Under the pieces are notes generated by a model, which saw nothing but the letters and a program-made list of their open reading frames with translations, did no database searches and had not been told where the DNA came from. A stretch of 64,000 bases of DNA from a virus (Duplodnaviria; Caudoviricetes), in IMG/VR virus record IMGVR_UViG_3300010356_002264, one strand, 5' to 3'. The stretch's first letter is position 1, and each line of letters begins with the position of its first letter. This document shows positions 25,244 through 51,208 of the stretch, one piece after another. Both the position numbers and the translations under genes were made by a program.

Positions 25244-25287
25244 GGGTGACTAGGATACGTGGACGGAGATCTGAAGGGAGCTGTGGG

Positions 25288-26427
25288 CTACTGGTCCTCC
25301 TCGACCTCGCACGCCTCCATCGTCGCGCGCCACTCCTCCCACCGACGGCTCATGTCGACCACGTCCTGCGCCCAGATGCGCTTGATGATGTGGACTTCGT
25401 CCTCGGTGATGAGGGTGCTTCCTACCCGATGCTGAAGGTCGAGCAGGCGGTCGAGGATCTCCATGCGGGCCGTGATCGTGAAGGGTCCTGGCATGAGCTC
25501 GTCCTGGGAGAAGGTGACCGTCCCGTCTCGCTTCTCCGCCTGTCGCTTGGTGCGGTCGTGCTGGAGGTCGCGGATGTAGTCGCGGAACTCCCCGAGGTGC
25601 TCGTACTCCTCGAACCCCGCGTCGGCCATCGCCTCCCCGCTCTTGTCCCGCGCGACCACCGTGCAGGTCCAGCAGCCGAAGCGCGAGCTCCCCCCGCACG
25701 CGGGGGCCTCGGAGCGGTCCATGACGACCGGGCACTCGCCGGCCCCTGCGTTTCGGTACAGCGTGATGAGGTTGCGGTGCGACCCACCCCAGGGGACGGG
25801 CCGCTGGAGGAGAGTCGCCCATACCTCGTCGGTGTCGAAGCGCTCGATTGGTCGGAACACCATGCAACTCTTGAGGTTCTGGTGCGGGCTGAGCCGCTGC
25901 CCCTCGACCGTGTGGCGGTCGATCGTCTTGGCGCGGTTCGCCGACTCCGACCTGCGCACTCCGACGAGCAGGACCACCTGCCCGGCTGCCGACACCTGAT
26001 CGCGGACGAACCGCGTCGTCGGGCCGATCTTCATCCGGTCCGTACACCAGCGAAAGCGACGGTTCGGCGGTGGGTAGCCGCGCCCGATCAGGTTGCACCA
26101 GAAGGTCTGGTCGGCGGCCGGCGTGGTGACATGGACCGACATGGGGAGGCGGAGGGACTCCCCGGCTCGTCCAACCTTGTCCAGGGCCGCGCGCGTGTGC
26201 GTGATGAGCAGCGGGCTCTCCACCTGGGTGTCGTTGCACACCACGTGGACGCGACGCTGCCGGTCCGACGGCGCGAGGCTGAGCAACATCTCAACGACCA
26301 GGTGCAGCACGAGCGTCGAGTCCTTCCCCCCGCTGAACGCCACGATCCACGGGTGTTGGTGAGGCTGAAGGTACTCGTCGCGGAGTTCCGCGATGGCGTG
26401 GTCGATCCTATGCTTTGTGAGCAGCAT
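25288..26427 (-). CDS. dndC: DndC-type PAPS-reductase-family sulfurtransferase (orphan)
   Basis: PWIVAFSGGKDST, NDTQVESP, FWCNLIGRGYPPP..FRWCTDRMKI, GVRRSES, ECP...SRFGCWTCTVV, GPFT. Confidence 0.88.
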   Translation of the reverse strand: MLLTKHRIDHAIAELRDEYLQPHQHPWIVAFSGGKDSTLVLHLVVEMLLSLAPSDRQRRVHVVCNDTQVESPLLITHTRAALDKVGRAGESLRLPMSVHVTTPAADQTFWCNLIGRGYPPPNRRFRWCTDRMKIGPTTRFVRDQVSAAGQVVLLVGVRRSESANRAKTIDRHTVEGQRLSPHQNLKSCMVFRPIERFDTDEVWATLLQRPVPWGGSHRNLITLYRNAGAGECPVVMDRSEAPACGGSSRFGCWTCTVVARDKSGEAMADAGFEEYEHLGEFRDYIRDLQHDRTKRQAEKRDGTVTFSQDELMPGPFTITARMEILDRLLDLQHRVGSTLITEDEVHIIKRIWAQDVVDMSRRWEEWRATMEACEVEEDQ

Positions 26428-26464
26428 GCCTGTAAGTCGAAGAGGCACGCTGAATATGAGCTGA

Positions 26465-26914
26465 CTACTTGATCGCCTGGAGGTGGATCTCCAGGCGGGG
26501 GCCGTCGATCGTGGGGGTCGTGTGCTCCCGCAGGACGCGGAAGGCCGCCTGGATCCCGTAGGCGCGCGCGAACCTCTCCCGGTAGATGTTGCCCGCCTCG
26601 TAGTAGAGGAAGCTGCGTCGGTTCCAGAAGGAGACGTGCGTGGGGTCCTGGAAGGCTCCTGGCCCGTCCGTCGTGGGAACGGCGATCTCGACGATCCTGC
26701 CAGGGGCGAGCACGCGCCAGAGCTCGTTCATCGTGTGGATCTTGTCGGGAAGGTGCTCGATGACGTCGTGGGCGCGGACACGCTCGACGGACCCGTCTGG
26801 CCAGGGCCAGGGCTTGGAGAGGTCGGCGACGACGTCGACGCCGTGGCCGGCGACGATGTCGACGTTGACGTAGTCCGCAAGGATGCGGTCACAACATCCG
26901 AGGTTGAGCTTCAT
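26465..26914 (-). CDS. class I SAM-dependent methyltransferase (type 11)
   Basis: KLNLGC, VNVD, HDVIEHL, WRVLAPG, DPTH. Confidence 0.85.
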   Translation of the reverse strand: MKLNLGCCDRILADYVNVDIVAGHGVDVVADLSKPWPWPDGSVERVRAHDVIEHLPDKIHTMNELWRVLAPGRIVEIAVPTTDGPGAFQDPTHVSFWNRRSFLYYEAGNIYRERFARAYGIQAAFRVLREHTTPTIDGPRLEIHLQAIK

Positions 26915-26922
26915 GTTTCATC

Positions 26923-28230
26923 CTACGCAGACAGGAGGCGGCGGGCCTCCTCGATCAGGAGGGCGCGCTTGTTGCGTGTGGGGTCATCCAGCACCCAGGC
27001 ATGCAGCGCGCGCTGGAGCTCCCCGATCCGGGGGCCTGGGGGGATGCCGAGGTCGGAGACGATGTTCGCTCCGCTCAGGTCGAGTTCGCCTGGGCGGAGC
27101 GGGAAGGGCTTGACCTGAGCGTCTTGGATGCGGGTCGCCAGGTGTTTGAACGCGTGCCCGCTCATCCTCTCTTCCTCGATGCGTTGCCCCACCAAAAGCC
27201 ACGTCCTGATGCCCTCCTGGTCGTTCGGGTGAAGGGCGAGGAAGCGGCGCACGGCCCCCATCTCCGGCCCGAGGGTCGGGAGGTCGGCGGTGAGCGCCCA
27301 GGACAGCCCCTCACAGTGCGCGGTCGACAGGCGCAGCGTCTCGTAGAGGTACTGCCCCACGGCTCGACGGTCCATGCCCTGCGCGCGGAAGTGCTCGCGC
27401 AGCGGCCACAGCAGCGCCGTCCACCGATGGCCGACCGGTACGTTGGACACGACGTAGATCCAATCTCCCTGGTTGTCGTCGAGGGTCCTGGCGTGCGGGG
27501 CGAGGTCTGGGAGGATGGTCCCAAGGATGTCGCAACTCTTGGCGAAGAACAGCAGGTCGAGGCCGTGGAACACGAGGCTGGGTTCCCGCTGGATGATCTT
27601 CTGGAGCTCGTCGCGCACGCGCTCGCGGCTCACCTGGCGCAGCACGTCGAGCGCCGACGGGATGGCCCGCCACGTAGCGGCCTCAATCGTGAACCCAAAG
27701 CGCGCCGCGAACCGCACGGCGCGCAGGACGCGCAGGCCGTCCTCCCGAAGGCGCGCGACGGGGTCGCCGACCGCCCTGACCTGACCAAGCCCCAGGTCGC
27801 GCTGGCCCTCGAACGGGTCGACGACCTTGTCCGCCACGGGGTCGTAGGCGATCGCGTTGATCGTGAAGTCGCGACGCCGGAGGTCCTCGACGACGTCGTC
27901 GAGGAACACGACGCTGTCGGGACGTCGACCATCCGAGTAGGTCCCGTCTCCTCGAAACGTGGTGATCTCCACGGGGAGCGAGGAAGCTCCTGGGGTCATG
28001 ACGGTGACCGTCCCGTGCGCGATCCCCGTGGGGATGACGCGCAGGTCGGAGAACACCCCCTGGACCTGTTCAGGCCGGGCCGATGTGGCGAGGTCGAAGT
28101 CCTTGGGGGGATCCCCGCGGAGGCGGTCTCGCACCGCGCCACCGACCAGGTAGGCCGCGTGGCCCGCCTGCTGGAGGCGTCGGCAGAGGTCGACGACCTC
28201 CTGGGGAAACGAGGCGGGCTGTAGGCTCAT
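26923..28230 (-). CDS. cca: CCA-adding tRNA nucleotidyltransferase (class II)
   Basis: VGGAVRD, DFDLAT, EITTFR, RRDFTINA, EDGLRVLRAVRF, SRERVRDE. Confidence 0.92.
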   Translation of the reverse strand: MSLQPASFPQEVVDLCRRLQQAGHAAYLVGGAVRDRLRGDPPKDFDLATSARPEQVQGVFSDLRVIPTGIAHGTVTVMTPGASSLPVEITTFRGDGTYSDGRRPDSVVFLDDVVEDLRRRDFTINAIAYDPVADKVVDPFEGQRDLGLGQVRAVGDPVARLREDGLRVLRAVRFAARFGFTIEAATWRAIPSALDVLRQVSRERVRDELQKIIQREPSLVFHGLDLLFFAKSCDILGTILPDLAPHARTLDDNQGDWIYVVSNVPVGHRWTALLWPLREHFRAQGMDRRAVGQYLYETLRLSTAHCEGLSWALTADLPTLGPEMGAVRRFLALHPNDQEGIRTWLLVGQRIEEERMSGHAFKHLATRIQDAQVKPFPLRPGELDLSGANIVSDLGIPPGPRIGELQRALHAWVLDDPTRNKRALLIEEARRLLSA

Positions 28231-28982
28231 GGGGTCTTCTCGTTGGGTACGGGGTTCGAGGCGTCGAGCACGAGGTAGAAGCTGCGCCCCTCGTACGCCC
28301 CAGGGCGTCGGACGAAGCGCGCGGGGTATCGCTGGCTGCCCCGCACCACGATCACCGTCCCCGTCGCGCCCTCTCCGGGGTCGGGGAACTGCTCGGGGTC
28401 CGGGTAGTAGTGGGTGCTGTGCGCGCCGAGGGCGGTCTTGGCGCGCAGCAGGTCAAGCTCAACCTCCACGTCGAGGCTGCGCAGGTAGTCGAACACGGAC
28501 CGCTCGATGTCCGCGAACCGCTTCATGTTGACGTGGGTGACCTGGTCGGCGCGCACCATCCCGATCGACTGGAGGTAGGCGAGGTAGTCGCGGATGACCG
28601 TGAGCCCCTTGTCGAACGACGTCGGTATGATCTCCGTTTCCTCGCACTGGAGGAGGATCGCGCGGTCACGCCGCGCGTTGAACTCGATCGCGAAGTCGCG
28701 CGGGTTTCGGAACCCCTCGATCACGCAGGCTGCGTTGAGGTCGTGGTGCTCGCGCAGGTATCGCAGGTTGAAGTCCGGGTCGGCCCCCATCACCGTGTTG
28801 TTGAACTGCACGAGCGCGTCGGTGTGCTCCTGACGGCTCGTCGATCCCTGCGGGGGGAAGTTCGCCCGGAACCACTCGGACGCGCTCACCACGGGGAGGC
28901 CGAGCGCCCCCGCCAGGTGGCGCGCGAACGGGGTCTTACCGGAGTTGCTGGACCCGAGGACGAAGAAGCGTGTTGGTTCCAC
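28227..28982 (-). CDS. P-loop nucleotide-kinase-like protein
   Basis: VLGSSNSGKT...VIEGFRNP; start uncertain (ORF extends to 29033). Confidence 0.6.
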   Translation of the reverse strand: MEPTRFFVLGSSNSGKTPFARHLAGALGLPVVSASEWFRANFPPQGSTSRQEHTDALVQFNNTVMGADPDFNLRYLREHHDLNAACVIEGFRNPRDFAIEFNARRDRAILLQCEETEIIPTSFDKGLTVIRDYLAYLQSIGMVRADQVTHVNMKRFADIERSVFDYLRSLDVEVELDLLRAKTALGAHSTHYYPDPEQFPDPGEGATGTVIVVRGSQRYPARFVRRPGAYEGRSFYLVLDASNPVPNEKTP

Positions 28983-28990
28983 AGGGGTCT

Positions 28991-29290
28991 CTAGCGAACG
29001 GGCCAGATGAACGCCTTGAGTTTGGAGATCCACGGGAGATCCTCCTTAGTGACGTACTCGCCCATCGATCGGGCCTCCGCGTGCAGCTTGTCGGCCAGGC
29101 GTCGAAGCTGGTCCTGCGTGTTGCGGGCCGCGCCGATCCGGGAGATGAACTCGTGGTGAAACATGACGGCGCGGGAGACCGCGCCCGCCAGGTGGTCGTG
29201 CTGTCCGCTGCGACGGAGCTCACGCTCCGCCTCCTCGAGGAGGCGGACGTGCTGCTCGTGGTCGAACTTGTCGTTGGGCTCTGTGGTCAT
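28991..29290 (-). CDS. hypothetical protein
   Basis: CAGCTCC 37 nt upstream. Confidence 0.6.
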   Translation of the reverse strand: MTTEPNDKFDHEQHVRLLEEAERELRRSGQHDHLAGAVSRAVMFHHEFISRIGAARNTQDQLRRLADKLHAEARSMGEYVTKEDLPWISKLKAFIWPVR

Positions 29291-33290: not shown

Positions 33291-33818
33291 TTGAGCCTGC
33301 CGAGCCAGATCCTGGACTTCATGCGGGACGAGCCCGCCTCGCGTGGCGAGGCGGCGGTCGTGCGGGTCGGGAACCGTGTGCTCGAGCGGGCGTCGCGGGC
33401 GGCAGACCGCGCGTTCCTGGAGAGCCAGAAGATCGACCTCCAGGCGGGCCTTCCGGCCGGGTCCACGGCGGCACGCGTGGTGGGAGAGGCGGCGCGCTGG
33501 GACTTCCTTCCTGCGTCAGACAAGCGATTCCTGCGGGTCTCGCGCCTTCTGGTGACGCGACGAGGCAAGACCCTCTCGATGCTGCGCGAGAACGGGACAG
33601 GAATGGCGGCGGACACTTTGGTCGCGGAGCTCGCCCGAGAGGTTACGAGGCAGGTGCGCGCAGCCGTCGTGCTATCGCTGCGCGTCACCGCGGACAAGAT
33701 CGGCCGCGCACCGCTCGATGTGGGGCGGAGAGTCATGCGGCTCGCTCGCGAGCACCCGAACCTGCTGCGGGACGCGGACCTCACCTGGGAGGTCCTTTCT
33801 GCGGTTTTGGGGAAGTAG
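33291..33818 (+). CDS. hypothetical protein
   Basis: ORF follows upstream gene directly; GAGG SD. Confidence 0.6.
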   Translation: MSLPSQILDFMRDEPASRGEAAVVRVGNRVLERASRAADRAFLESQKIDLQAGLPAGSTAARVVGEAARWDFLPASDKRFLRVSRLLVTRRGKTLSMLRENGTGMAADTLVAELAREVTRQVRAAVVLSLRVTADKIGRAPLDVGRRVMRLAREHPNLLRDADLTWEVLSAVLGK

Positions 33819-33850
33819 TTCAGCTCCGTCCTGCCCTCTTGCGGGTAGAC

Positions 33851-34190
33851 GCTGGTGGGTCGGGTTCGCGGCGTGGCAACATGACACGCGGCCCTCACAG
33901 TACCTGAGGGAACGGGCGAACAGGACGAGGCAGCGTCCAGGATAGGCAGGGAGACGGCACCGACGTACACGCGGAGCAACAGGGAAGCCGTATCGGGAGT
34001 CCGTCGAGGGTGGTGAATAGCCACCCGGGTGGCGCACCTGAATCGACAGGAAGAGCGGGGCTGGAATCGACCAGTGATGCGGGTTGGGCAGGACCCTGGG
34101 AGCCCAACCGAATAAGGAAAGCCGCTCACAAAACGTACGGCCACCACGAGCCAAGCCGGGGCAGGACCGGCCGAACCCGACCCACTCAGC
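33851..34190 (+). ncRNA. putative ~340 nt structured ncRNA of unknown family upstream of rtcB
   Basis: Terminal stem 33855-33868/34172-34185 (14 bp perfect, plus 4 bp after a bulge) enclosing at least 8 helices; preceded by CAGCTCC (33821) and a -10-like TAGACG; no credible ORF. Confidence 0.7.
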
Positions 34191-34236
34191 TCCAAAATTC
34201 GGCACCCTTTCGACCATCTCCAGAAAGGGATCCATC

Positions 34237-35652
34237 ATGTCGTTCAAGTACCAGGTCGAGCAGGTCGGCCCGAGCAAGTTCGTTCTCCCGCGCGTAGGGA
34301 CCATGCGGTGCGATGTCACGGCGTTCCTGTCGCCCGAGCTCTACGCGGCCTCCGAGGAGGACATGTGGGCGGACGCGGCGAAGTCTGCGTCTACGCCGGG
34401 CGCGATCGGGATGTACCTCCAGCCCGACTGCCACAAGGGGTACGTCCTCCCCGTGGGAGGGGTGCTCGTGACCGACGGTGTGGTGGCGCAGGCGGGCAGC
34501 GGGTACGACATCTCCTGCGGCGTCGTGTACCTCCGGGTACCGAACCTGCACGCGCGGGACGTCGCCGACTGGGCGCTCCGCGAGCGCTGGGTGCGGGCGG
34601 TCTCGGACCGCGTGGCGCTTGGCTACGACAAGGGAGGGAACCGACCGCGCCTCATGCGGTCGCCCTCGGATCGCAAGGTCAGCGAGGTCCTGCGCTACGG
34701 GGCGAAGGCGGTCGGAGGAAACCTCGACCTCTGCGAGCGCCCCTACATCCCCATCGACGACAACCTGTTCGACGAGAAGCTCATCCCCAAGGCGCTCTCG
34801 AAGGCGGCACCGCAGCTTGGGTCCGTCGGCGGGGGAAACCACTTCGTCGAGCTCCAGGTCGAGCGGTCGACCGGCGAGGTGTGGGTGATGGTTCACTGCG
34901 GGTCGCGCGGCTTCGGCTGGCAGGCGGCCGACTACTTCTTCGACCGTGGGGCGGAGCTAAACGACCTCCCGCGCGGGCGCAAGGAGGAGTCGTGCCTGCG
35001 GCTGGACTCGGAGCTTGGTCGCCTGTACTGGCAGTGGCATAACGCGGCGGCGAACTTCGCCGTCGCGAACCGTCACGTCATCGCGGCTGGCGTCGCGGAG
35101 GCGACCGAGGAGGTCCTCGGTGCGCGTCCCGAGCTCTTCTACGAGATCAGCCACAACCTGGTCCAGGAGGAGACCCTCGTGCTTCCTGACGGCACCACGA
35201 AGAAGGGGCTCGTCCACCGCAAGGGCTCGACCCGCGCGTTCCCGGCGGGGCACCCGGACCTGGTGGGGACCAAGTGGGCCAAGACCGGCCACCCGTGCCT
35301 CATCCCTGGGTCGATGCTGACCGGCGCGGCGATCCTGTGGCCGCAGGAGGGGGCGTACCAGTCGGGCTGCTCGGTGAACCACGGGTCGGGGCGCGTGATG
35401 GGCCGCAACGCGGCCAAGCGCGAGCTCGCGGCGCTGCACGACGACATCGACCACGAGATGCGGACGATCCGCCGCGAGGCGGGTGGCGCGGAGGTCGTGG
35501 GGATCGTCGGGAACTGCGAGCGGACCCCGCTCGACGAGTGTGGTCATGTTTATAAGGATTTGGACGTAGTGCTCAAGGTGCTGGAGGACAACGGCATCGC
35601 GCGCCTGGCACACCGTTTGTGGCCTGTGGCCAACTTGAAGGGAAGCGACTAG
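34237..35652 (+). CDS. rtcB: RtcB RNA ligase (3'-phosphate/2',3'-cyclic phosphate to 5'-OH)
   Basis: PDCH.GY..PVGG, GYDISCG, LGSVGGGNHFVE, VHCGSRG, SHN, VHRKG, IPGSM, HGSGR, YKD. Confidence 0.95.
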   Translation: MSFKYQVEQVGPSKFVLPRVGTMRCDVTAFLSPELYAASEEDMWADAAKSASTPGAIGMYLQPDCHKGYVLPVGGVLVTDGVVAQAGSGYDISCGVVYLRVPNLHARDVADWALRERWVRAVSDRVALGYDKGGNRPRLMRSPSDRKVSEVLRYGAKAVGGNLDLCERPYIPIDDNLFDEKLIPKALSKAAPQLGSVGGGNHFVELQVERSTGEVWVMVHCGSRGFGWQAADYFFDRGAELNDLPRGRKEESCLRLDSELGRLYWQWHNAAANFAVANRHVIAAGVAEATEEVLGARPELFYEISHNLVQEETLVLPDGTTKKGLVHRKGSTRAFPAGHPDLVGTKWAKTGHPCLIPGSMLTGAAILWPQEGAYQSGCSVNHGSGRVMGRNAAKRELAALHDDIDHEMRTIRREAGGAEVVGIVGNCERTPLDECGHVYKDLDVVLKVLEDNGIARLAHRLWPVANLKGSD

Positions 35653-36725
35653 CGGTGCTCGCACTCGCCCCGGACGCAGTTCGGGGTGTAGTGCTGGGTC
35701 CAGTGGTCGGGGGAGGTCACCCCGAGGACGCGGCACTTGAGGACGGCGCGCGGGAAGTCGGTGAGGCGGAACGGGCCGAGGGGGCGCACCACGTACCCCT
35801 CGGACGGGTCCTGGCTCCCGGACCGCCGTGCCCCGCGCAGTGCCGCCTGGGTCGTGAGGCCCCGCAGGATGGCCTCGTCGAACGGTCCCCGGTATAGCTC
35901 GGGGATGGGCTGTAGGCCGAGCAGCCGCGCGTAGAGCGCGGTCTCGTCCCACCCGAGCGCCTGGTCTCGGTCCCAGACGGAGAAGACGAAGAAGCGGTCC
36001 GGCGTCCCGTCGTCGGCGCACAGGTCGTGGTACTCGACCGAGTGGAGGGCGTCGACGTTCTCCCCGCACACGCGGAACTCCGGTGGGATGTCGCGCCACA
36101 GGGAGGCGTGGCGCGCGCGCATGCGGGACCGGCTCGGATGACGCGCGTACCCGTCGATCGACCGCGCGTGCAGGTAGTCCGCCTCGGGGCCGAGGGTGGT
36201 GTTCTCGCCGTCGAGCTTCTCCAGCACGACCACCTCCCGCGCCCGGAGCCAGTCGAGGTCCTGCGGACGCACGAACCGGTCGTCGGCGTCCGCGCACGGC
36301 GACCACGGCAGGTGCAGGGTTCGGGGAGGCTTCACCCGCGAGGTGAACTCGTGCCACACGGGCTGGAGGATGCGTCGCACGCTGTCCTCGAAGCCGAGCG
36401 GGCCCAGCGCTCGGCGGCCGTTCGGTAGGTAGGGGTTGCCCCACTTGTCGATGACGGCCTCCGCGTGAAGGTAGTCGGGCACACGCACCGTCTGGATGCG
36501 TGCGGCCTCGCGCACCTGCTCGACCGTCACCTCGGTGCGCTCGCAGCGGAGGTGACAGGGCCCGCACACGGTCGCTCCGTTGTCGAGGTAGTACCCTCCG
36601 TCGGGCCACAGGCGACGGTCTAGGATGTGGTGGGCGTCCTGGCCGGGGTTCCCGCACAGGACGCACCGGCTGCGGTCGCGCGCGAACACCCTCTCGCGAA
36701 AAGCATCTCGGGTGAGGAGGGTCAT
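35649..36725 (-). CDS. HNH domain fused to ATP-dependent RNA ligase (Rnl2-like)
   Basis: N-terminal VFARD..CVLC..DAHHI...C..CH; ligase RTLHLPWS, EKLDGENT, GEN..A.HS, EGYVVR; CAGCTC 36 nt upstream. Confidence 0.85.
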   Translation of the reverse strand: MTLLTRDAFRERVFARDRSRCVLCGNPGQDAHHILDRRLWPDGGYYLDNGATVCGPCHLRCERTEVTVEQVREAARIQTVRVPDYLHAEAVIDKWGNPYLPNGRRALGPLGFEDSVRRILQPVWHEFTSRVKPPRTLHLPWSPCADADDRFVRPQDLDWLRAREVVVLEKLDGENTTLGPEADYLHARSIDGYARHPSRSRMRARHASLWRDIPPEFRVCGENVDALHSVEYHDLCADDGTPDRFFVFSVWDRDQALGWDETALYARLLGLQPIPELYRGPFDEAILRGLTTQAALRGARRSGSQDPSEGYVVRPLGPFRLTDFPRAVLKCRVLGVTSPDHWTQHYTPNCVRGECEHR

Positions 36726-36778
36726 GCGGAAGGGCATCTCGACGCGCTGGAGGGCGAGCTGTCCGGGTAAGACCTCCC

Positions 36779-38440
36779 ATGGCTGACGCCCCAGACCTGA
36801 TCGCACTCGCCCGGAGCCTCGCCCGCATGCGCGAGATCCGCCGAGACAAGAGCTTCATCCTCAAGAAGAGCAGCCTGCTGCGGGACGAAGTCGAGGTCCC
36901 CGGCGTGGGGAAGGTTCCTTTCCAGCTCCGTCCCTACCAGCAGCAGATGGTCTTTCACCTCATCCTCATGCCCAGGTTTGTCGTGGGAGAAGACACCGGC
37001 TGCGGCAAGACGATCGAGGTGATCGGGGCGCTCGCCCACCTGTGGGAGAAGAACCCCACGATGCGGGTCCTCGTTGTGGGCACCAAGAGCCTGGCCTCCC
37101 AGTGGGAAGAGGAGCTCCGGCGATTCTTCCGCGAGGTGAACGTGTTCGTTGCGGCCGGCGAGGTCGAGAAGCGCCGGAAGGTGCGTGAGGCGTTCCTCAA
37201 GTGCGACCGCTACCCGGTGCTCGTCTACACGTACGGGTCGATCGCCAGGGACTTCACGGACCTTCAGGAGTGGAGCGGGCACCTGCTCGTCGCAGACGAG
37301 GCCACGGTCTTCAAGGAGCCCAAGACCCAGATCCACCAGGTCATGGGTCACCTCGGCGCGACCGCGTCGCGCGCCTGGGCGCTGACCGCCACGCTCCTCA
37401 AGAACAACCTCGTCGAGGGGTACGGGATCTTCAGGGTCATCGTGCCGGGCGTCTTTCCGGCCTCGCCGTCGACCTTCATTAAGAGCTACTGCCTCACGCA
37501 GTTGCGCCTGGTGGCGCGCGGCCGGCGCGTGCCCCAGATCATCGGGTACGCGCCCGACCAGATCGAAGCGTACCGGGAAGCGATCGAGCCCTACTACCTG
37601 GGCCGGTCCAAGCGAGACGTGGCCAGCGACCTACCCAAGGTGCTCCCGCCGGTCGAGATCCCCGTGTCGCTGTCGCCAGCGGAGTGGTCCCTCTACCGGG
37701 ACGCGCAGGCGGGGCTCCTTCAGGTGGGGGAGAAGAAGGACGACGGCACGACCCAGACCAAGATGTCCGCGCTGCTGCGCTGCCAGCAGGTCGTCAATCA
37801 CGCTGGCCTGGTCGAGGTCGCCGACGTGCCATCCTCGAAGCTGTCGGTACTCGTGGACCTGCTCACCTCGGGAGACTACGCGGACCAGCAGGTCATCGTC
37901 TACAGCCGGTTCCGCACCCTCATCGTCAACCACATCGAGCCGGCGCTCCGGGCCCAGCACGTCACGGTGACCCGCGTGACGGGCGGGGAGAATGACGCAC
38001 AGCGTGCGCAGGCGCGTGCGGACTTCCAGGAGGGCCGAGCGCGCGTCATCCTCCTCACCTCGGCCGGTGGTGAGGGGATCAACCTCCAGGCCGCGAGCGC
38101 CATCGTGTTCTACGACACCCCCTGGTCGGCCGGCGACTACGTCCAGATCCTTGGCCGCATGGTGCGCATCGGCAGCGCGCACGAGCGCGCCGTCACCCTT
38201 CACCTAGTGGCCAAGCCGCCCGGGGGATCACGGGCGCAGAAGACGATCGACGACTACACCCTCCAGGTGTTGCGCGGGAAGCTGGCGCTCTTCGAGAAGG
38301 TGCTAGACCGCAAGGTATTCGACGATCCGACGGGTCCCGTGGCTCCCGTCGACCCCAGCGCGTCGATGGAGGGAGAGATCGACACGATCTTCGACATGCT
38401 GCGGGGCGAACAGGGTAGGAGCACGCATGAGCAACAGTAA
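36779..38440 (+). CDS. SNF2-family helicase/ATPase
   Basis: LRPYQ, DTGCGKT, DEAT, LTAT, AGGEGINLQAA, DTPWS, GRMVRIG. Confidence 0.9.
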   Translation: MADAPDLIALARSLARMREIRRDKSFILKKSSLLRDEVEVPGVGKVPFQLRPYQQQMVFHLILMPRFVVGEDTGCGKTIEVIGALAHLWEKNPTMRVLVVGTKSLASQWEEELRRFFREVNVFVAAGEVEKRRKVREAFLKCDRYPVLVYTYGSIARDFTDLQEWSGHLLVADEATVFKEPKTQIHQVMGHLGATASRAWALTATLLKNNLVEGYGIFRVIVPGVFPASPSTFIKSYCLTQLRLVARGRRVPQIIGYAPDQIEAYREAIEPYYLGRSKRDVASDLPKVLPPVEIPVSLSPAEWSLYRDAQAGLLQVGEKKDDGTTQTKMSALLRCQQVVNHAGLVEVADVPSSKLSVLVDLLTSGDYADQQVIVYSRFRTLIVNHIEPALRAQHVTVTRVTGGENDAQRAQARADFQEGRARVILLTSAGGEGINLQAASAIVFYDTPWSAGDYVQILGRMVRIGSAHERAVTLHLVAKPPGGSRAQKTIDDYTLQVLRGKLALFEKVLDRKVFDDPTGPVAPVDPSASMEGEIDTIFDMLRGEQGRSTHEQQ

Positions 38441-39398
38441 CGTGCCCACCCGGCTGCCAGGAGACGGCGAGCCTGACTGCCCCAAGTGTCGCGGGAGCGG
38501 GTCCGTGCAGAAGGTCTACACGCCGGCTGAGCTCAAGGCACTCCCGCCCTACATAATCCCATCGACCCACTTCGACACCTGCGTCTGCACCAGGGCGCGG
38601 CGCGAGCGTGAGGCCCTGGAGCGCGTGTGGCGCGGGTACTCGGGCTTCGAGCCCATCGACCGAACGCCGCTCGTCAAGTACGCGCAGCAGGACGTGCTCG
38701 TGAGCGCCTCATCCCCAACGCTACGGACCCACCTGGCCCGCGTCCTGCACCAGGTGCCCAGCCTGCTCCGCTCGACCCGCGTGGTGTCCGACCTCGACCT
38801 GGTGAGCGCGTGGCTCGCGACGGCGGGCCTCGACGTGCTTGACCCGGAGGTCGCGGGCCACACGCGTGACGCGGAGGACGCCTACCTGCGTCTGGTAGAC
38901 CTGGTGGCTCCGCCCTCCCTACTCGTCCTTCGGCTCGGGGTCAAAGCGGCGCGCAACGTCGCCGTTCCCGAGGTCATCCTGGAAGCCCTCCAGTGCCGTG
39001 CGCATCGAGGGCGACCAACCTGGGTCGTCGAGGACCCTTATGTGCCCTTTACCACGGGGGCAATCTTCTGGAGCCCCCAGCTCGTCGCCCACATGGCTCC
39101 GTGGGACCGCGTGGGGATAGACGGGAGTCACGCAGTCGAGGAGTGCGTGGCCTCCCTGGACGGGCTACTCCGAGCGACCGGTCCCGCCGAGCCCGAACCC
39201 CTTCCGCGCGCGCGGCCCGAGAGACAACCCCCCAGGATAGAGGTCATTCCAGCCACGGAGGAGGGGATGCTTCCTGGCGGGATGTCGATCGACAAGAAGG
39301 CACCGAAGAAGGGTGCGGGTAGTAGGAAGTCCTCGTTCGGGGGCGGGAGAAAGCCCTCGTTCGGCGGTGGAAGGATCCGAGAAGTCGATGAAACCTGA
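38427..39398 (+). CDS. Zn-finger protein, possible degenerate DnaC/IstB-like helicase loader
   Basis: CPKC.G.G...CVC; located before the DnaB-like gene; no intact Walker A. Confidence 0.45.
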   Translation: MSNSNVPTRLPGDGEPDCPKCRGSGSVQKVYTPAELKALPPYIIPSTHFDTCVCTRARREREALERVWRGYSGFEPIDRTPLVKYAQQDVLVSASSPTLRTHLARVLHQVPSLLRSTRVVSDLDLVSAWLATAGLDVLDPEVAGHTRDAEDAYLRLVDLVAPPSLLVLRLGVKAARNVAVPEVILEALQCRAHRGRPTWVVEDPYVPFTTGAIFWSPQLVAHMAPWDRVGIDGSHAVEECVASLDGLLRATGPAEPEPLPRARPERQPPRIEVIPATEEGMLPGGMSIDKKAPKKGAGSRKSSFGGGRKPSFGGGRIREVDET

Positions 39399-40926
39399 CC
39401 TCATCCGATCGATCGTGCGCTGTCGGCCCGCCGACCCTGCACCGCTGGTGCTCAAGAACGTCCAGGCCGTGCGTGACGCGCAGGTCGAGTTCCTGCTCCC
39501 TGAGGACGGGGAGATCTGGGTGTTCGTCGACCAGTTCACCCGCGACCATGGACACCCGCCAGAGCTCCAGACGACGACCTCCCACCTGCGGTCGGTCGGG
39601 CAGGTGGGGGCAGCGGACCGCATGGAGGCGGTGTCTGTCGGTCCTCTCAAGACCGAGGGGGACTTCTTCCACGTGCTGGAGCAGGTCTGCGAGGAGCGAC
39701 GCATGCGGCTGCTCGAGCAGGCGATGCGGGACGTGCGGCTCATCGCGACCTCCGGCCTGGAGGTCGGAGAGGGGCGGGACAAGCGCGTCCTGCGGGGCGC
39801 TCAGCAGGCCGCCTCGTACGCAGTCGAGGCGATGCGCGAGGTGGCGACCCCCACGCTGTCCTCCCACCTGTCTGGTGAGATCCTGCGGGACGCCGACGAC
39901 ATCGTGGCCGAGTACGAGAGGACGGAGCGCGACCCCCGAGCGGCCTTCGGCCAGTGGACAGGCATCAAGCAGATGGACGAGTCGCTCGGTGGGGCGCGCG
40001 TCGCGGAGCTCTGGATCCACGCGGCCTACTCGGGGCACCTCAAGACGACCTTCGCGCTCAACTGGGCCTACAACCAGGCGATCTGGTTCCACGACAACGT
40101 CCTGTACTTCTCGCTGGAGATGCCCTACCGGCAGGTCCGTCGGTGGATCGTCGCGATGCACTCGTTCCACTCCAAGTTCGCGGAGGTGCGCACCGAGCTC
40201 GGCATCCAGCAGGAGGGGGGGATCAACGTGGGGCTCGACTACAAGCGCATCCGCGACGCCCAGCTCACCCCGGCGGAGAAGCGGTTCCTCGTGAACCACG
40301 TGGTCCCCGACCTCAAGGACCCCGAAAACGGCTACGGACGGATCATCATCGAGGTGGCCGACCCCGACAAGCCCGACGTCACCGTCGACGGCCTGCGGGG
40401 CCGCGCCGAGACCATCTACCCCAAGACGCCATTCTCCACCATCTACCTCGACCACGCCTCGCTCCTCGGGGTGCGCTCGAAGGTGTCCACCTCCGAGCGA
40501 CTCAACGACGCGCTGCGCGACTGCAAGCGGTTCGCGATGCAGTTCCGCCGCGGCCAGGGGATCCCGCTGGTGGCGCTCTTCCAGATCAACCGCGAGGGGC
40601 TCAAGGAGGCCCACAAGCGCAAGGAGAAGGGGCTGCTCCCCACCTACGAGCTCAACAACCTCTCCTACGCCTCGGAGGCCGAGCGCAGCGCGGACGTCGT
40701 CACCACGAGCTACCTCGACAAGGAGTACGCCGAGCGGAACCGGGCGCTCTTCACGTGCCTCAAGAGCCGCGACAACGCCCCCTTCAACCCCTTCCTCGCC
40801 CAGATCGACTGGCCCTGCCGGCGGATCGGGACCTGCTTCGACAACCCGCTCGACGACGTCTCGACGCGCGTCGACCCCGAGCAGGGGGCGGAGATCACGA
40901 GCGCCCTGGACGCGCTCATCCGATGA
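39388..40926 (+). CDS. DnaB-like replicative helicase
   Basis: TGIKQMD..LGG, AYSGHLKTT, LYFSLEM, IYLDH, LFQINR, AERSAD, KSR. Confidence 0.85.
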   Translation: MKPDLIRSIVRCRPADPAPLVLKNVQAVRDAQVEFLLPEDGEIWVFVDQFTRDHGHPPELQTTTSHLRSVGQVGAADRMEAVSVGPLKTEGDFFHVLEQVCEERRMRLLEQAMRDVRLIATSGLEVGEGRDKRVLRGAQQAASYAVEAMREVATPTLSSHLSGEILRDADDIVAEYERTERDPRAAFGQWTGIKQMDESLGGARVAELWIHAAYSGHLKTTFALNWAYNQAIWFHDNVLYFSLEMPYRQVRRWIVAMHSFHSKFAEVRTELGIQQEGGINVGLDYKRIRDAQLTPAEKRFLVNHVVPDLKDPENGYGRIIIEVADPDKPDVTVDGLRGRAETIYPKTPFSTIYLDHASLLGVRSKVSTSERLNDALRDCKRFAMQFRRGQGIPLVALFQINREGLKEAHKRKEKGLLPTYELNNLSYASEAERSADVVTTSYLDKEYAERNRALFTCLKSRDNAPFNPFLAQIDWPCRRIGTCFDNPLDDVSTRVDPEQGAEITSALDALIR

Positions 40927-41741
40927 GCCTGCGCGAGGAGGTCGCCGAGCGCATGGCGAGGGCGCTCGGGGCCGAGGTGCTCGGCGCGGGGGAGGCGGCC
41001 CGCCGGCCCCCCGGGAGCCTCCGGGCGCTCGTGCTGCGCGGGACTCCCTCTCCCGCCGAGTGGGGCGCGATCGAGGCCGCGCTCCTGCCGGGGGCGCTCG
41101 TCGCGCTTCTCCCTGGCGACCCGGAGGGGGAGGAGGCGATCCTCGCGGAGGAGGTCGGGCTGGAGGTGTGGGACGCGATCCTGGTGGCCGACGACCCGCG
41201 CACCGTCCTCCCCGCCGCCAAGGCGACCCGCACCGAGAAGGAGGCGGGCCTCGCGGGGGTCGTGGCCCCGCGCGCGGGCCACGAGGCCGTCAAGCGGAAG
41301 GAGGGGAGCGCTGGGGTGCGCAACGCGCGCGCCGGCGCCGGCCGCACGGCCAAGGCGGTGCTCAACGACCACCCGACGGTCAAGTCGGTCGGGGCGGTGA
41401 GGGCCGCGATGCGCGTCGCCGGAGCGTACGAGGAGGACGCGGCGGGCCCCGTCCTCGACCTGTTCTCCGGGTCGGGGACGACGGGGGTGGTGTGCGTGGA
41501 GGACGGGATACCGGTCGTCCTCGTCGACAAGCTGCGGCGCTACGCGGACCTCGCCGCGGGGCGCATGCGGGGAGCCGTTGCCCGTTCCCCGCAGGTGCGG
41601 GTGGTGTGTGCCGTAGATCTGGGTATCGCGCCCCCCATGGGAGAGAACCCCCAGGAAGGAGCTCCCCATGCCACGCCCGCTGAACGTCGCCGCAACCCTC
41701 CGCGGCGCAAGCTACGAGTTCCCCCCGACCCCCGACCATGA
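40923..41741 (+). CDS. N4/N6 DNA methyltransferase C-terminal (SAM-binding) half
   Basis: KA...EK.AG, NDHPTVK, VLDLFSGSGTTG; no DPPY. Confidence 0.7.
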   Translation: MSLREEVAERMARALGAEVLGAGEAARRPPGSLRALVLRGTPSPAEWGAIEAALLPGALVALLPGDPEGEEAILAEEVGLEVWDAILVADDPRTVLPAAKATRTEKEAGLAGVVAPRAGHEAVKRKEGSAGVRNARAGAGRTAKAVLNDHPTVKSVGAVRAAMRVAGAYEEDAAGPVLDLFSGSGTTGVVCVEDGIPVVLVDKLRRYADLAAGRMRGAVARSPQVRVVCAVDLGIAPPMGENPQEGAPHATPAERRRNPPRRKLRVPPDPRP

Positions 41742-43005
41742 CCTCCGCTTCATGGGGGGCCGCACGATCCCCCACTTGACCTACACGAACCTCTACCTGG
41801 GCGGACGCGACGCCTGGGTGCCCGACGAGGTGCGGCAGATCGACCAGTCGCTCCTGGCGGCGATGACCGACCCCGGCCTCACCAACGTGATGCGGCAGTA
41901 CTTCAAGAACGCCCCCATCACGACGCAGTTCGCCCCGTCGCGGGTGCTCGACGGGACCCCTCCCGCGACCTTCGGGCAGAAGGACGTCGAGGACCTGGTG
42001 CTCAAGCTGCACCGAGACAGCCAGCTCGCCAGGTTCCACCTGAACCTCGGCTCGACCCTGGTGAACCTCGTCCTGCCGCGCGGGTCCGTCCTCACGCTCG
42101 ACGAGGACGCCTCGGACATCCGGCGCGTCCTCCCGCGCGCGACCGAGCACGAGGAGGCCTCGAGCCTCTACGGGCTCGGGGGCTACCACGGGTCGGTGCA
42201 CCCGCGCCCCGGCGTGACCGTCTACTACGCGGTGAGCGTCTACTCGGAGCGGACCGCGGAGCGCGAGAACGGGATCGTGGCGTTCGACGCCCCGTGGAAG
42301 AACGTCGTCGCGACCCTGTACCACGAGCTGTGCGAGGCCCGAACGGACCCTGATGTTGGGGACGCGATACGCCTCGGTGACGACCCGGCGGCCCAACGGC
42401 TGCTCGGGTGGATCTCCGACCAGGGGGAAGAGGTGGGAGACTTCCCCGTCTTCGAGGCGGGACCCGACCTGTCCAGCGTGATGCGGGAGGTCCCGCTTGT
42501 CTCTGGCACGGGCACTGTGCCCGTGCAGATCATGTACTCGAACGCCCACCACGGTCCGGCCGGGCCGCTGGCGTACCTGTGCGACCTCCAGGCCCCTCGC
42601 GTCAACGTGCAGGTGCTCGCTCCGCCCCCGCCGCCAGAGCGGCTCGTGGTTCCTCCCGATGAGTTCTGGGAGGAGGCTGCGCGTCAGGCCGAGGACCCCG
42701 CTCCCCTGGAGGTCCCGGAGAGCGGACGGACCGAGCCGGTCGCCGAGGCATCTCCGTCGGAGACGAACGAGGGAACGAACGACGTGAAGTCCACCCTGGA
42801 CGCCTTGTCGCACGAGGAGGCCAAGTCGATGCTCGCCACGTGCGAGCAGACGACGCCTGGTGAGTCCCCGCAGAGCGAGCATGGCTCGGGTGTCACCACG
42901 CAACCCATGCTCATCGATCCGGAGGGCGCAGGCGCGCAGGACATCGATCCGGAGGTCGAGCCGGAGGTCGTCTCAGGGCCTGCGGTCTCAGGGGGCCTCG
43001 CGTAG
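41668..43005 (+). CDS. Phi-1/EXORDIUM-like bacterial-type domain protein with acidic tail
   Basis: L.F.GG.., GGYH, HELCEARTDPD, GEEVGD; AAGGAG SD. Confidence 0.55.
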   Translation: MPRPLNVAATLRGASYEFPPTPDHDLRFMGGRTIPHLTYTNLYLGGRDAWVPDEVRQIDQSLLAAMTDPGLTNVMRQYFKNAPITTQFAPSRVLDGTPPATFGQKDVEDLVLKLHRDSQLARFHLNLGSTLVNLVLPRGSVLTLDEDASDIRRVLPRATEHEEASSLYGLGGYHGSVHPRPGVTVYYAVSVYSERTAERENGIVAFDAPWKNVVATLYHELCEARTDPDVGDAIRLGDDPAAQRLLGWISDQGEEVGDFPVFEAGPDLSSVMREVPLVSGTGTVPVQIMYSNAHHGPAGPLAYLCDLQAPRVNVQVLAPPPPPERLVVPPDEFWEEAARQAEDPAPLEVPESGRTEPVAEASPSETNEGTNDVKSTLDALSHEEAKSMLATCEQTTPGESPQSEHGSGVTTQPMLIDPEGAGAQDIDPEVEPEVVSGPAVSGGLA

Positions 43006-43024
43006 GCGTACAGGTAGTCGTGCA

Positions 43025-43666
43025 TCACTTCTCCTCGTTCCACTCAACATAGTCCTCGGGGTCCAGGTCGCCACGGGCAATCGCCTCCTTGACGGCCGCG
43101 TGCGTGTCGGGGTTCGCCCCCACGACGAGGACCACGTGGGGGCTCGCGACGCCGCAGAGCACGGTGGCCAGGCGCTTGTGCGCCGAGTAGCTGCCGTGCA
43201 GCTTCCCAGACACCACGTCGGGGAGCAGGACGATCGAGGGGATCGCGTCGACCATCGCGTCGGCCACGCAGCGCGCGAGCCTCAGGTTGAACGCGTCCCC
43301 GTCGCTGGGATCCACCACGTCGCGTACCTGCGTCCCCGTCAGGGTCTCGAAGATCGAGTGCGAGTCCAGGCTCTTCGACCAGCTCTGGAACCAGGACGCG
43401 GCGCGCAGCGAGTCTCCGTTCGAGGGGCGCAAGGATAGTATGCAGCGCAGGTAGGGTGCGGCACCGCTCGGAACAGGCGCCTGGTAGGTCGTCCCGTTCT
43501 CCGTGAGGCGGGCACGCACGACGGGAGACTGGAGGGGTCCTTTCAGCGAGAGCAGGGCCTTCCGTATGAGGTCCACTCGCTCCGCGCAGTCGGCTCCAGT
43601 CACGAGGGTGAGGGGCTTCAGGTTCAAGCCCTGTCGGGGGAGGCCGTTGGCCGCGAGGAGGATCAT
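43025..43666 (-). CDS. hypothetical protein
   Basis: CAGCTCC 36 nt upstream. Confidence 0.6.
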   Translation of the reverse strand: MILLAANGLPRQGLNLKPLTLVTGADCAERVDLIRKALLSLKGPLQSPVVRARLTENGTTYQAPVPSGAAPYLRCILSLRPSNGDSLRAASWFQSWSKSLDSHSIFETLTGTQVRDVVDPSDGDAFNLRLARCVADAMVDAIPSIVLLPDVVSGKLHGSYSAHKRLATVLCGVASPHVVLVVGANPDTHAAVKEAIARGDLDPEDYVEWNEEK

Positions 43667-43703
43667 GCGTGGGAGTCGGCGACGCCGCTCCCTGCGGAGC
43701 TGA

Positions 43704-43892
43704 CTACTTGGGCGGGGCGGGCGGCGGGGTCGCGGGCACGAACGTGACCCGCTGGTTGAGCGCCTGCGCGCGTTCCTTGCACGCCCCGCAGGGCTTGATG
43801 CCGACCGCGCTCGTCACGCGGGCGATCGCGTTGCCGAGCGGCAGGGGTTGGTTGATGAAGGGAAGAGGGATGCGAAGGGGACGACGCGCCAT
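43704..43892 (-). CDS. small phage protein with GIKPCxxCxxR..LN motif
   Basis: AAGGAGG SD; motif seen in phage hypothetical proteins. Confidence 0.65.
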   Translation of the reverse strand: MARRPLRIPLPFINQPLPLGNAIARVTSAVGIKPCGACKERAQALNQRVTFVPATPPPAPPK

Positions 43893-43978
43893 GGGAACCT
43901 CCTTCAACGACCCTACGCCTTGCGAACGGATCCTCCAGCGTGCGGATCGAGTTCGGACCGCATCGGGTAGCAGAGCCC

Positions 43979-44245
43979 GTGAGCTTCGTCCTCTACCTGA
44001 TACGTAAACCCGCTCCGGTCGTGGAGGCCGCCCGGCTCCATGGTACGGGTGGGATCGACCTGGACGTACTCCGTCCACTCAGCGGCACATGGCCCACCAA
44101 CGTGATGCTCGTCCACCTGTCCAACTGCACCCGAGGAGGGTGTGCGACAGGATGCCCCGTGCGTACCGCGCAGGACGTCCTTGGGGACAACGTGCGGTCC
44201 GTGTCGATCGTCCGCGATCTGCCCGACGAGGAGTCTCCATGGTAG
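43979..44245 (+). CDS. small hypothetical protein
   Basis: GGGTA motif upstream; overlaps next start. Confidence 0.45.
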   Translation: MSFVLYLIRKPAPVVEAARLHGTGGIDLDVLRPLSGTWPTNVMLVHLSNCTRGGCATGCPVRTAQDVLGDNVRSVSIVRDLPDEESPW

Positions 44246-44742
44246 ACGCGCTAGTCATCGTCGGAGACAACATGATTGTCACCCCGACCCTTGGGCCTGC
44301 AACGATGCGGGCGGTCGTGACGGACCCCCCTTACGGGATCAGCTACATGGGAGAGGAGTGGGACGACCCTCGCAAGGGGTCTGACGACACCCTGCACCCA
44401 GGACGGCGGTTCCAGGTGTGGTGCGAGCGCTGGATGCGGGAGTGCCTCCGGCTTCTTCGTCCTGGGGGCCGGATGGCGTGCTTTGCGGCGGCGCGACAGG
44501 TTCACCGAGTCCGTCAGGCCGTGGTGGTCTCGGGGTTCTGTGAGGTAGAGGTCCACGGGTGGCTCTACCTCACGGGACATCCGAAGTTCCTCGACCTACT
44601 ACGGGAGGTCGAACGTCGGTGGGGTCGAGAGGAGGCCGATCGGCTACGTCGGCAACGACACACCGCCCTAAAGCCTGCCTGGGAGCCCGTCATCGTTGGT
44701 CGCAAGCCCCTCGGGCTCGCACACGACCCCGTAGAAGTCTGA
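44239..44742 (+). CDS. N4/N6 DNA methyltransferase N-terminal (catalytic DPPY) half
   Basis: AVVTDPPYGI..M...WD, ECLRLLRPGG, WLY.TG.PK, TALKPAWEPVIVGRKP; no FxGxG. Confidence 0.75.
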   Translation: MVDALVIVGDNMIVTPTLGPATMRAVVTDPPYGISYMGEEWDDPRKGSDDTLHPGRRFQVWCERWMRECLRLLRPGGRMACFAAARQVHRVRQAVVVSGFCEVEVHGWLYLTGHPKFLDLLREVERRWGREEADRLRRQRHTALKPAWEPVIVGRKPLGLAHDPVEV

Positions 44743-45099
44743 CTTGTAGACCACCTGACGGACAAACGGCGGGGACACGGCCGCGATGACTCCGTAGCTT
44801 ATCGCGCCGATCTCCCTTCCCTGCTCCCTCTCCAGGTACGCTTTGAGTCCCTTCCCCTCTGCCTCAAGGGAGGCTGTCCAGACCACGAAGTCGACGCACT
44901 GCTTGGCTAGCGGCGTAACAAGGGCCGTGCGCTCCTCTATCGGCCTGGAGCGAAGTACCAGATGGATCTCCCACCACATACGCTCCTGCCAACCGGAATG
45001 CTCCCTGTACCGTCGAACGAGAGTGTCCAGGGCTGCCGTGAGCGGCTCGGACCTCATCTCCGTGACGATCAGCACCCCACGTGCGGGTAGGTCAACCAT
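44668..45099 (-). CDS. hypothetical protein
   Basis: CAGCTC 36 nt upstream. Confidence 0.5.
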   Translation of the reverse strand: MVDLPARGVLIVTEMRSEPLTAALDTLVRRYREHSGWQERMWWEIHLVLRSRPIEERTALVTPLAKQCVDFVVWTASLEAEGKGLKAYLEREQGREIGAISYGVIAAVSPPFVRQVVYKSDFYGVVCEPEGLATNDDGLPGRL

Positions 45100-45110
45100 G
45101 AGGATAGGAC

Positions 45111-45722: not shown

Positions 45723-45729
45723 TCAGCAC

Positions 45730-47163: not shown

Positions 47164-47185
47164 ACCTCATGCTACTTCTGGACCG

Positions 47186-47199
47186 CAGCTCCGGAGCTG
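47186..47199. promoter_or_regulatory. palindromic double CAGCTCC element serving divergent genes
   Basis: CAGCTCCGGAGCTG; each half lies 36 nt from a start codon (47222 on +, 47163 on -). Confidence 0.75.
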
Positions 47200-47221
47200 A
47201 CTGGTCGGGGTAGAACCTCGT

Positions 47222-48341: not shown

Positions 48342-48417
48342 ATGTTCTCGTCGAGACTCCGACGAGAAATAGAGCTGACAATCGACGCAAAGGATGGCTT
48401 TTCGGGTAGTAGACCGC

Positions 48418-51156: not shown

Positions 51157-51208
51157 CCGGGAACATCGAGGGCTGCACGCGTTTTTGCTCGCGTGCTACG
51201 AACCAGAC

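Follow-up and report, generated by a model that had tools for sequence, protein, structure and literature searches.

A structured non-coding RNA of about 330 nucleotides (nt) lies directly upstream of rtcB in the viral DNA analyzed here, a 64,000-nt window (IMG/VR record IMGVR_UViG_3300010356_002264) in which positions 33,819 to 36,725 form the stretch under study; positions are those of the window unless a contig is named. Compensating mutations between homologues preserve the fold of this RNA, which confirms that it is a real, conserved, structured non-coding RNA. It is predicted to extend from 33857 to 34185 on the + strand, with a closing stem and about 13 helices, on the evidence of its fold z-score, covariation, and contigs of RNA-labeled libraries that cover 33870-34180. 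Very probably it is a genuine, independent RNA gene. Judged by its sequence and predicted structure, it appears to represent an RNA family not described before and restricted to a narrow phage lineage, in line with the new class of non-coding RNA that a first-pass annotation of the window had proposed for this site.

Homologues were reached via the protein encoded upstream and via RtcB, and they come from sludge and wastewater: L037/L038, one Logan sample pair, and L050, a European Nucleotide Archive (ENA) assembly. They are ~82 to 85% identical to the window across the RNA, and a fourth variant is represented by one contig (X19) of a wastewater run labeled RNA-Seq. The RNAalifold consensus of a three-sequence alignment comprises 93 pairs in 16 helices, with 96% of the cells paired. 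Twelve pairs have changed on both sides with pairing kept, compared to 4.4 ± 1.7 in column shuffles (0 of 500 reached 12), and in a slid control with partners shifted by 1 to 3 columns no more than three pairs changed on both sides. The X19 variant contributes five further compensatory pairs, located in helices P11 and P12. In P12, five of the eight pairs covary, and one of them is G-C, C-G, or U-A across three lineages. The covariation by which the annotation had wanted its RNA to be judged is thus present, as the 12 + 5 compensatory pairs stand above both the shuffled and the slid controls. Its statement that the gap before rtcB holds no credible open reading frame also stands, since no frame is open throughout all three homologues and the indels between them (1, 2, 3, and 5 nt) do not keep to multiples of three.

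The segment 33855-34187 has a folding energy of −147.2 kcal/mol, as against −126.3 ± 4.9 kcal/mol for dinucleotide shuffles (z = −4.26), and none of 100 shuffles was as good; the dense pairing that had been noticed in the letters therefore exceeds that of shuffled sequence. The opposite strand of the region gave a z-score of −2.21. All helices listed in the first-pass annotation were found where it had placed them and in the minimum-free-energy fold, all on the + strand: a terminal stem (33851-33868/34172-34190), hairpins at 33871-89, 33892-910, 33923-38, 34008-26, and 34155-71, twin hairpins with AAUCGA loops (34037-50 and 34061-74), and a GAGCGG/CCGCUC helix that encloses an 8-bp hairpin (34082-34109). 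The homologues qualify the terminal stem. Its inner part, 33855-33868/34172-34185, is kept as the closing stem P1, which is supported by fold and alignment, is perfect over 14 bp and G+C-rich in the window, and has one mismatch each, plus G-U pairs, in L037 and L050. Its outer 4 to 6 bp (33851-56) are absent from L050 and probably lie upstream of the transcription start. A long-range GCCGUAU/GUACGGC pairing, which had been read as an echo of domain V of group II introns, did not survive the comparison: two of its pairs are lost in both L037 and L050, and it competes with helix P8 (34028-33/34140-45), which shows two compensatory changes.

P1 encloses three domains. The 5′ domain (33869-33952, +), with hairpins P2, P3, and P5 and the invariant linkers AACGGGCGAACA and GAUAGNCAGGGA, has a mean column identity of 97% and served as covariance model R2. 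The central domain (33953-34026, +), the most divergent part of the alignment, consists of the variable P6 and hairpin P7, whose GNRA-type cap is GCAA in L037 and GAAA in L050. In X19, positions 33948-34023 (the central 76 nt) are swapped for 18 nt that still form a GCAA-capped hairpin; therefore, the central domain is dispensable, while a GNRA-type hairpin is kept. The 3′ domain (34028-34171, +), used as model R1, has P8 around P9, P10, P11, and P12, followed by P13, and carries most of the compensatory changes. It also holds the twin AAUCGA loops and the invariant segments UAAGGAAAG and CAAAACGUA. The first AAUCGA loop varies in relatives (AACUGA and GACUGA), and the rest of the element shows no enrichment of AAUCGA-loop hairpins.

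The borders of the RNA gene are suggested by a promoter type that recurs in the element. Positions 19505-64000 of the window are the end of a 194,784-bp contig, C242, from a 7.2-Mb metagenome bin. The 8-mer TCAGCTCC occurs 17 times in the window, where 3.6 copies are expected, and is concentrated on five contigs of the bin (C242, C37, C103, C98, and C177), with 111 copies in total, and also serves to identify the contigs that the element contributes to the bin. Alignment of the 111 copies gave TCAGCTCC-N17-CGAC-N8-ATG, with an ATG exactly 29 nt past the box in 53 of them and no Shine-Dalgarno sequence. The pattern TCAGCTCC-N17-CGAC thus has the appearance of a bipartite promoter, and the fixed ATG spacing without a Shine-Dalgarno sequence suggests that its mRNAs are mostly leaderless. 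One copy of TCAGCTCC (33820-33827, +), conserved in L037 and L050, would be the −35-like box of the RNA gene. Seventeen nucleotides further, as the spacing rule of the promoter demands, stands a −10-like box, GTAGAC (33845-33850, +), which reads GTAGAA in L037 and GTATAC in L050. Transcription of the RNA would accordingly start near 33857, and in all three homologues the promoter box stands 37 nt ahead of the predicted RNA start. A promoter motif noted at 33821 by the first-pass annotation is therefore the box of a bipartite promoter.

At the other border, rtcB appears to have a promoter of its own (34186-34214, +), which matches the full consensus (TCAGCTCC at 34186-93, 17 nt, and CGAC at 34211-14) and whose box begins one base after the 3′ strand of P1. 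The predicted start of the rtcB mRNA, near 34223, falls right at its ribosome-binding site. The distance from this promoter to the ATG is equal with or without the RNA, and the same arrangement is found in L039 and L051, which lack the RNA. The computed fold further contains a hairpin, CCCUUUC/GAAAGGG (34205-34229, +), which would hide the ribosome-binding site of rtcB solely in transcripts initiated before the rtcB promoter. This hairpin may insulate rtcB translation from read-through more than regulate it. An analogous CCUAUC/GGUAGG pairing precedes rtcB in L039 (positions 1200-1232 of that contig).

Comparison with relatives suggests that the RNA and its promoter box are gained and lost as a unit. 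The RNA is present in relatives whose RtcB is 94% (L050) and 98.9% (L037) identical to that of the window, and absent from L039 to L042 (N-terminal part of RtcB ~92% identical), L051 (82%), and L052 (74%). In the loci without the RNA, the stop codon of the upstream gene is followed by a single TCAGCTCC-N17-CGAC and then by rtcB. Because the RNA is missing from close relatives whose rtcB directly follows the upstream gene, promoter box plus RNA (33820-34185, 366 bp) form an optional cassette, recently gained or lost, apparently by exchange at the repeated promoter box. Window and L037 share just 82% identity in the RNA, though their RtcB proteins are 98.9% identical; the locus is therefore mosaic. 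An extra gene for a protein of 134 to 146 amino acids (aa) and of no known family precedes the cassette in L037, L050, and two further gene maps. Relatives with P0002, P0003, and P0010 have a 420- to 430-nt gap at the locus, as judged from gene maps alone, and one relative, known from gene calls only, has a LAGLIDADG gene ahead of rtcB, preceded by a gap of 419 nt without genes, in which the RNA may lie. As the adjacency to rtcB comes from one lineage and the cassette is recent, this adjacency is weak evidence of a functional tie. Homing-type endonuclease genes vary around rtcB, with a NUMOD4/HNH_3 gene after it in another relative, and in one contig a LAGLIDADG-bearing intein resides in the neighboring SNF2 helicase gene. 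We rejected a miniature inverted-repeat transposable element (MITE) or other transposon at the site, because the RNA is present in a single copy in 7.2 Mb and its flanking 8-mer repeat is the promoter box, which is not adjacent to the inverted repeat.

Contigs of four public runs were placed on 33400-34700. Those from libraries labeled metatranscriptomic or RNA-Seq, which stem from two studies, cover only 33870-34083, 33873-34035, 33874-33956 (continuing as a diverged variant), 33881-33969, and 33911-34180 at the RNA. Their union, 33870-34180, fits the predicted 33857-34185. The deepest RNA-labeled contigs are 171 nt at 71× and 262 nt at 176×, and the sole rtcB contig has 4.4×, depths to be read with the labels in mind, which are uncertain: the libraries are possibly DNA, their contigs cannot reliably show ends or abundance, and uncovered flanks prove nothing. 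In a DNA run, a contig bridges the upstream gene into the RNA. The coverage by RNA-labeled contigs is hence only a hint of expression. One metatranscriptome-labeled contig (X6, record 3) matches 33870-34083 with one change and has 16 unrelated letters in place of the 5′ strand of P1; these letters match neither end of the RNA, and neither the bin nor the collected loci offered a source for them.

The RNA does not belong to a family in Rfam 15: neither at the gathering threshold nor, more permissively, at E ≤ 10 was a match obtained for the window, for 1 kb, or for 361 nt, as expected of the new class that had been claimed. This result gives no support to RNase P RNA, group I and II introns, known self-cleaving ribozymes, 6S RNA, or signal recognition particle RNA. 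Nor would an intron fit the site, which lies between genes; the genes on either side are intact in relatives lacking the RNA, so that there are no exons. ARAGORN and a tRNA model found nothing in the window, neither transfer-messenger RNA (tmRNA) nor a tRNA-like module at the RNA; tmRNA, which needs a tRNA-like end domain and a tag frame, was rejected. The covariance models of ROOL (RF03087) and GOLLD (RF02032) did not match at E ≤ 10. The same holds for YrlA, the Y RNA of model RF02553, on 1 kb and on 361 nt, although this model scored 60 to 70 bits in three other loci (L013, L016, and L017). The tRNA-like domain of YrlA, with its T-arm GGUUCGAAUCC and its D-arm GUAGCUCA...GAGC, is likewise absent from the RNA sequence. 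The pairing of 5′ and 3′ ends in a stem (P1) is a trait shared with Y RNAs; a conserved bulge is not present.

Searches for more members added none to these few loci. BLASTN in its "distant" setting found no match to the RNA in 50,697 phage records; when 41 related genomes were searched by BLAST and 150 genomes of the order by model R1, the copy in the window alone came back. Neither nhmmer nor R1 and R2 detected a homologue in 24 RtcB loci drawn from collections of genomes and viruses or in the IMG/VR records to which L002 to L004 belong, and R1 and R2 revealed no further member in 30 loci, the bin, and three IMG/VR records. Matches on contigs C83 and C5 (25 and 21 bits) have many broken pairs and were taken as chance, as were all seven matches of a 19-mer in Joint Genome Institute (JGI) metagenomes. 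Four exact or gapped patterns had no match in IMG/VR viral contigs, and a full-text literature search found no RNA of this kind described upstream of a phage rtcB.

The RNA lies in a phage-like RNA-repair neighborhood. The upstream gene (33291-33818, +) codes for a 175-aa protein of unassigned function, with no match in Pfam or PHROG; it occurs in relatives with and without the RNA, and the homologues P0002 to P0005 are 71 to 75% identical. Both RNA ligases named by the first-pass annotation were borne out. The RNA 3′-phosphate/5′-OH ligase gene rtcB (34237-35652, +) matches Pfam RtcB at E = 3e-81. Convergent with it, a gene at 35649-36806 (−) encodes a fusion of an HNH domain (residues 27-103) with an RNA ligase of the PF09414 family (Pfam RNA_ligase, E = 4e-23; PHROG RNA ligase, E = 8.5e-87), and HNH-Rnl2 fusions of this type are already known from jumbo phages (PMC7824862). 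A possible tRNA-end-healing gene set lies nearby (24563-29033, −). It would include a metallophosphoesterase (24563-25243), a CCA-adding enzyme (26923-28230), and a kinase-like candidate of 268 aa (28227-29033) with a weak, sub-threshold P-loop match (AAA_33/AAA_17); a PAPS-reductase/DndC-like gene (25288-26448) stands between those for the phosphoesterase and the CCA-adding enzyme, all four on the − strand. A DnaB-type helicase, a family A DNA polymerase, and an SNF2 helicase are also encoded in the region. C242 carries an array of 43 tRNA genes (38974-53000 of the contig), and ARAGORN found a tmRNA with the tag ANDNSVRLAA on C103 (13260-13618), which also holds five tRNAs. The closest RtcB relatives include IMG/VR contigs of 255 to 408 kb. 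On the strength of this gene content, the 43 tRNAs and the tmRNA, and the large IMG/VR relatives, the region is called phage-like, and the element is probably a giant phage, an identity that is indirect. Its DNA was detected in activated-sludge and wastewater runs.

Taken together, these data lead us to favor, tentatively and at slightly under even confidence, a stand-alone, stable, trans-acting RNA gene that is part of the tRNA-repair module of the phage. A role in RNA repair or anti-ribotoxin defense is possible, and we hold it a little less firmly; it is proposed because the slot before rtcB elsewhere holds a structured RNA and because a tRNA-repair kit surrounds it here. We infer the start site, the stability, the action in trans, and the tie to RNA repair. 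Transcription would start near 33857 from a promoter of the element's own type, TCAGCTCC-N17 followed by a −10 box. The 12- to 14-bp P1 would then join both ends and close a multi-domain core, whose 5′ domain is near-invariant, whose central domain is dispensable, and whose 3′ domain has five helices, and the gene would end exactly where the −35 box of the independent rtcB promoter starts. In trans, the RNA may act as a protein-binding scaffold or as a decoy in a conflict between RNA-cutting defenses of the host and the tRNA-repair kit of the phage. The kit would consist of RtcB, the HNH-RNA ligase fusion, the CCA-adding enzyme, the weak kinase-like P-loop candidate, the phosphoesterase, and 43 or more tRNAs. 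Candidate contact surfaces are the invariant unpaired segments AACGGGCGAACA, GAUAGNCAGGGA, UAAGGAAAG, and CAAAACGUA together with the loops AAUCGA and GGCAGGA.

Several observations weigh against this proposal. Only three assembled homologues and one contig variant are at hand, all from one narrow phage lineage; therefore, the covariation rests on about three lineages and the adjacency to rtcB amounts to a single evolutionary event. The −10 box of the RNA promoter, GTAGAC, deviates from the CGAC consensus, no terminator was found after the RNA so that read-through into rtcB is likely, and the uncertain library labels detract from the hint of expression. No protein partner was identified: Pfam, PHROG, and Atlas searches with the neighboring proteins gave no lead, the two upstream genes are of no known family and are present also without the RNA, and a Ro60/Rsr (TROVE) gene is found only on the host contig C179 and not on C242. 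As to the element itself, the Pfam models Terminase_6N and HK97-capsid have no match on any motif-rich contig, and a lone marginal Terminase_6N match lies on C247; the assignment to a giant phage is therefore probable and not proven.

Among other explanations, we regard as unlikely a cis-acting leader of rtcB, in which transcripts from upstream run through the domain and a ligand, an RNA such as a damaged tRNA, or a protein is sensed to control rtcB translation or stability. The position of the RNA, on the same strand and directly upstream of rtcB with no terminator between, would suit such a leader, as would its stem-closed, aptamer-like, multi-helix architecture, typical of riboswitches and shared with T-box leaders, and the conserved hairpin 34205-34229, which hides the ribosome-binding site only in transcripts beginning upstream of the rtcB promoter. 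However, a complete promoter stands between the RNA and the rtcB start codon, spaced as in relatives without the RNA, and the 14-bp G+C-rich P1 has no competing pairing to switch: no alternative pairing to any expression platform was seen in the fold. Unlike such leaders, the RNA is also optional among near-identical rtcB genes, and in one relative, going by gene calls, the LAGLIDADG gene would come between the gap that may hold it and rtcB. Contigs from the RNA libraries never bridge into rtcB, and ~330 nt with 13 helices is far above the size of most leaders. We find it distinctly improbable that the RNA is instead a substrate of the neighboring ligases, processed by itself or by an enzyme and joined at its ends by RtcB or the Rnl ligase into a circular or re-ligated form. 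P1 does bring the 5′ and 3′ ends together, two RNA ligase genes adjoin, and the X6 contig has its 16 unrelated letters at the 5′ strand of P1; but those letters match neither RNA end, no back-joined contig is among those placed, no known self-cleaving ribozyme family matches, and a blunt long duplex is not the geometry sealed by RtcB or Rnl2.

The chance is comparably small that the RNA is a homo-oligomerizing "ornate" RNA of the ROOL/GOLLD kind, which would form an RNA-only assembly via loop-loop contacts. ROOL and GOLLD are known from phages and from a tRNA-gene context (Weinberg et al. 2017, PMC5737381), and a preprint describes them as forming cages (Kretsch et al., bioRxiv 10.1101/2024.12.08.627333). 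The present RNA resembles them in being large, multi-domain and multi-junction, and phage-borne in a tRNA-rich genome, and in being an independent gene and not an obvious leader. Its loops also contain 4-nt palindromes (CAUG/AUAU, GUAC, and UCGA twice), but these are not clearly more numerous than chance would give, and the first AAUCGA loop differs in the relatives. In contrast to ROOL and GOLLD (~580 and ~800 nt, in several phyla), it has ~330 nt, about half their size, is found in three close relatives, and shows no match to them in sequence or structure, their models giving no similarity at E ≤ 10. A sponge of the CsrB/RsmZ type for a GGA-binding regulator is hardly credible. Of several conserved GGA motifs, one is part of the invariant 7-nt loop GGCAGGA and another of the invariant segment UAAGGAAAG, but they are few and mostly outside repeated hairpin loops, the fold is intricately nested and no string of similar hairpins, and no CsrA gene (PF02599) was found in the 94.7%-complete bin, phage contigs included, a bin that may not be the true host. 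Equally implausible is a Y RNA of the YrlA family, divergent and enlarged, that would work with the host Ro60 (Rsr). In favor are the long stem that unites the ends of the RNA, a place next to rtcB like that of YrlA in related loci of Polyangiaceae, and an Rsr with weak YrlA-like matches in the host bin. Against it, YrlA gave no match at E ≤ 10, the RNA has no T-arm- or D-arm-like module or other tRNA-like match and lacks the bulged helix to which Ro binds, and Ro60 is not encoded on the phage contig.

YrlA Y RNAs (RF02553), known from bacteria and phages, belong to rsr-yrlA-rtcBA loci (Chen et al. 2014, PMC4201824; Hughes et al. 2020, PMC7790460). Like YrlA, the RNA is non-coding, pairs its ends in a long stem, and stands next to rtcB in an RNA-repair neighborhood; unlike YrlA, it is three times larger, without the tRNA-like domain and the bulged Ro-binding helix, in an element without Ro60. 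By analogy, it would fill the same genomic slot as the Y RNAs of cellular rsr-yrlA-rtcB loci, and it may work like a Y RNA without being one. In Polyangiaceae, whose RtcB is 59% identical, a true YrlA lies upstream of rtcB. On contigs of Polyangiaceae metagenome-assembled genomes, YrlA-type RNAs precede rtcB at 698-851 (L013), 2106-2267 (L016), and 1975-2130 and 2367-2499 (L017), of which only that of L013 reaches the Rfam gathering score, the others being divergent members. The host-like contig C179 (10994-13263) holds, in a row, an N-terminal fragment of RtcB, two weak YrlA-like matches (38 and 30 bits), and a 608-aa TROVE/Ro60 frame. In Planctomycetota contigs (RtcB 70 to 71% identical), a repeated block of ~115 to 120 nt, unrelated to the RNA, lies upstream of rtcB (L005, 2200-2560; L006, 1-430; L024, 2650-3000), and the Polyangiaceae contig L010 has a cobalamin riboswitch (5989-6168, 84 bits) downstream of rtcB.

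Phage T4 species 1 and 2 RNAs (RNA C and D) are stable RNAs of 120 to 140 nt, partly tRNA-like, and are located inside tRNA clusters. The RNA described here shares with them its place among translation and RNA-repair genes of a phage and, presumably, its stability, but it lacks tRNA-like character, and ~125 kb of the contig separate it from the tRNA array.

It is tempting to go further, and doubtful that one should, and to see here the first of a new class of "repair-module RNAs" of phages. Such an RNA, a scaffold or decoy working with or without protein, would replace the Y RNA in a giant phage; it might offer broken tRNAs to RtcB and to the Rnl ligase, or else sequester an anticodon nuclease of the host, perhaps as a loop-loop-linked oligomer. 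If such a class exists, RtcB-based repair would have a general, undescribed requirement for an RNA partner. Large, intricately folded RNAs of bacteria and phages are rare and have repeatedly proved to do unusual biochemistry. With its clean covariation, defined borders, and a contrast of presence and absence between near-identical phages, the RNA can be tested directly, and its locus is an example of a giant phage exchanging "promoter plus gene" cassettes at a promoter box that recurs. That two mutually unrelated RNAs, YrlA in Polyangiaceae and the one described here, both stand just upstream of rtcB sharpens the question of the RNA partners of RtcB repair.

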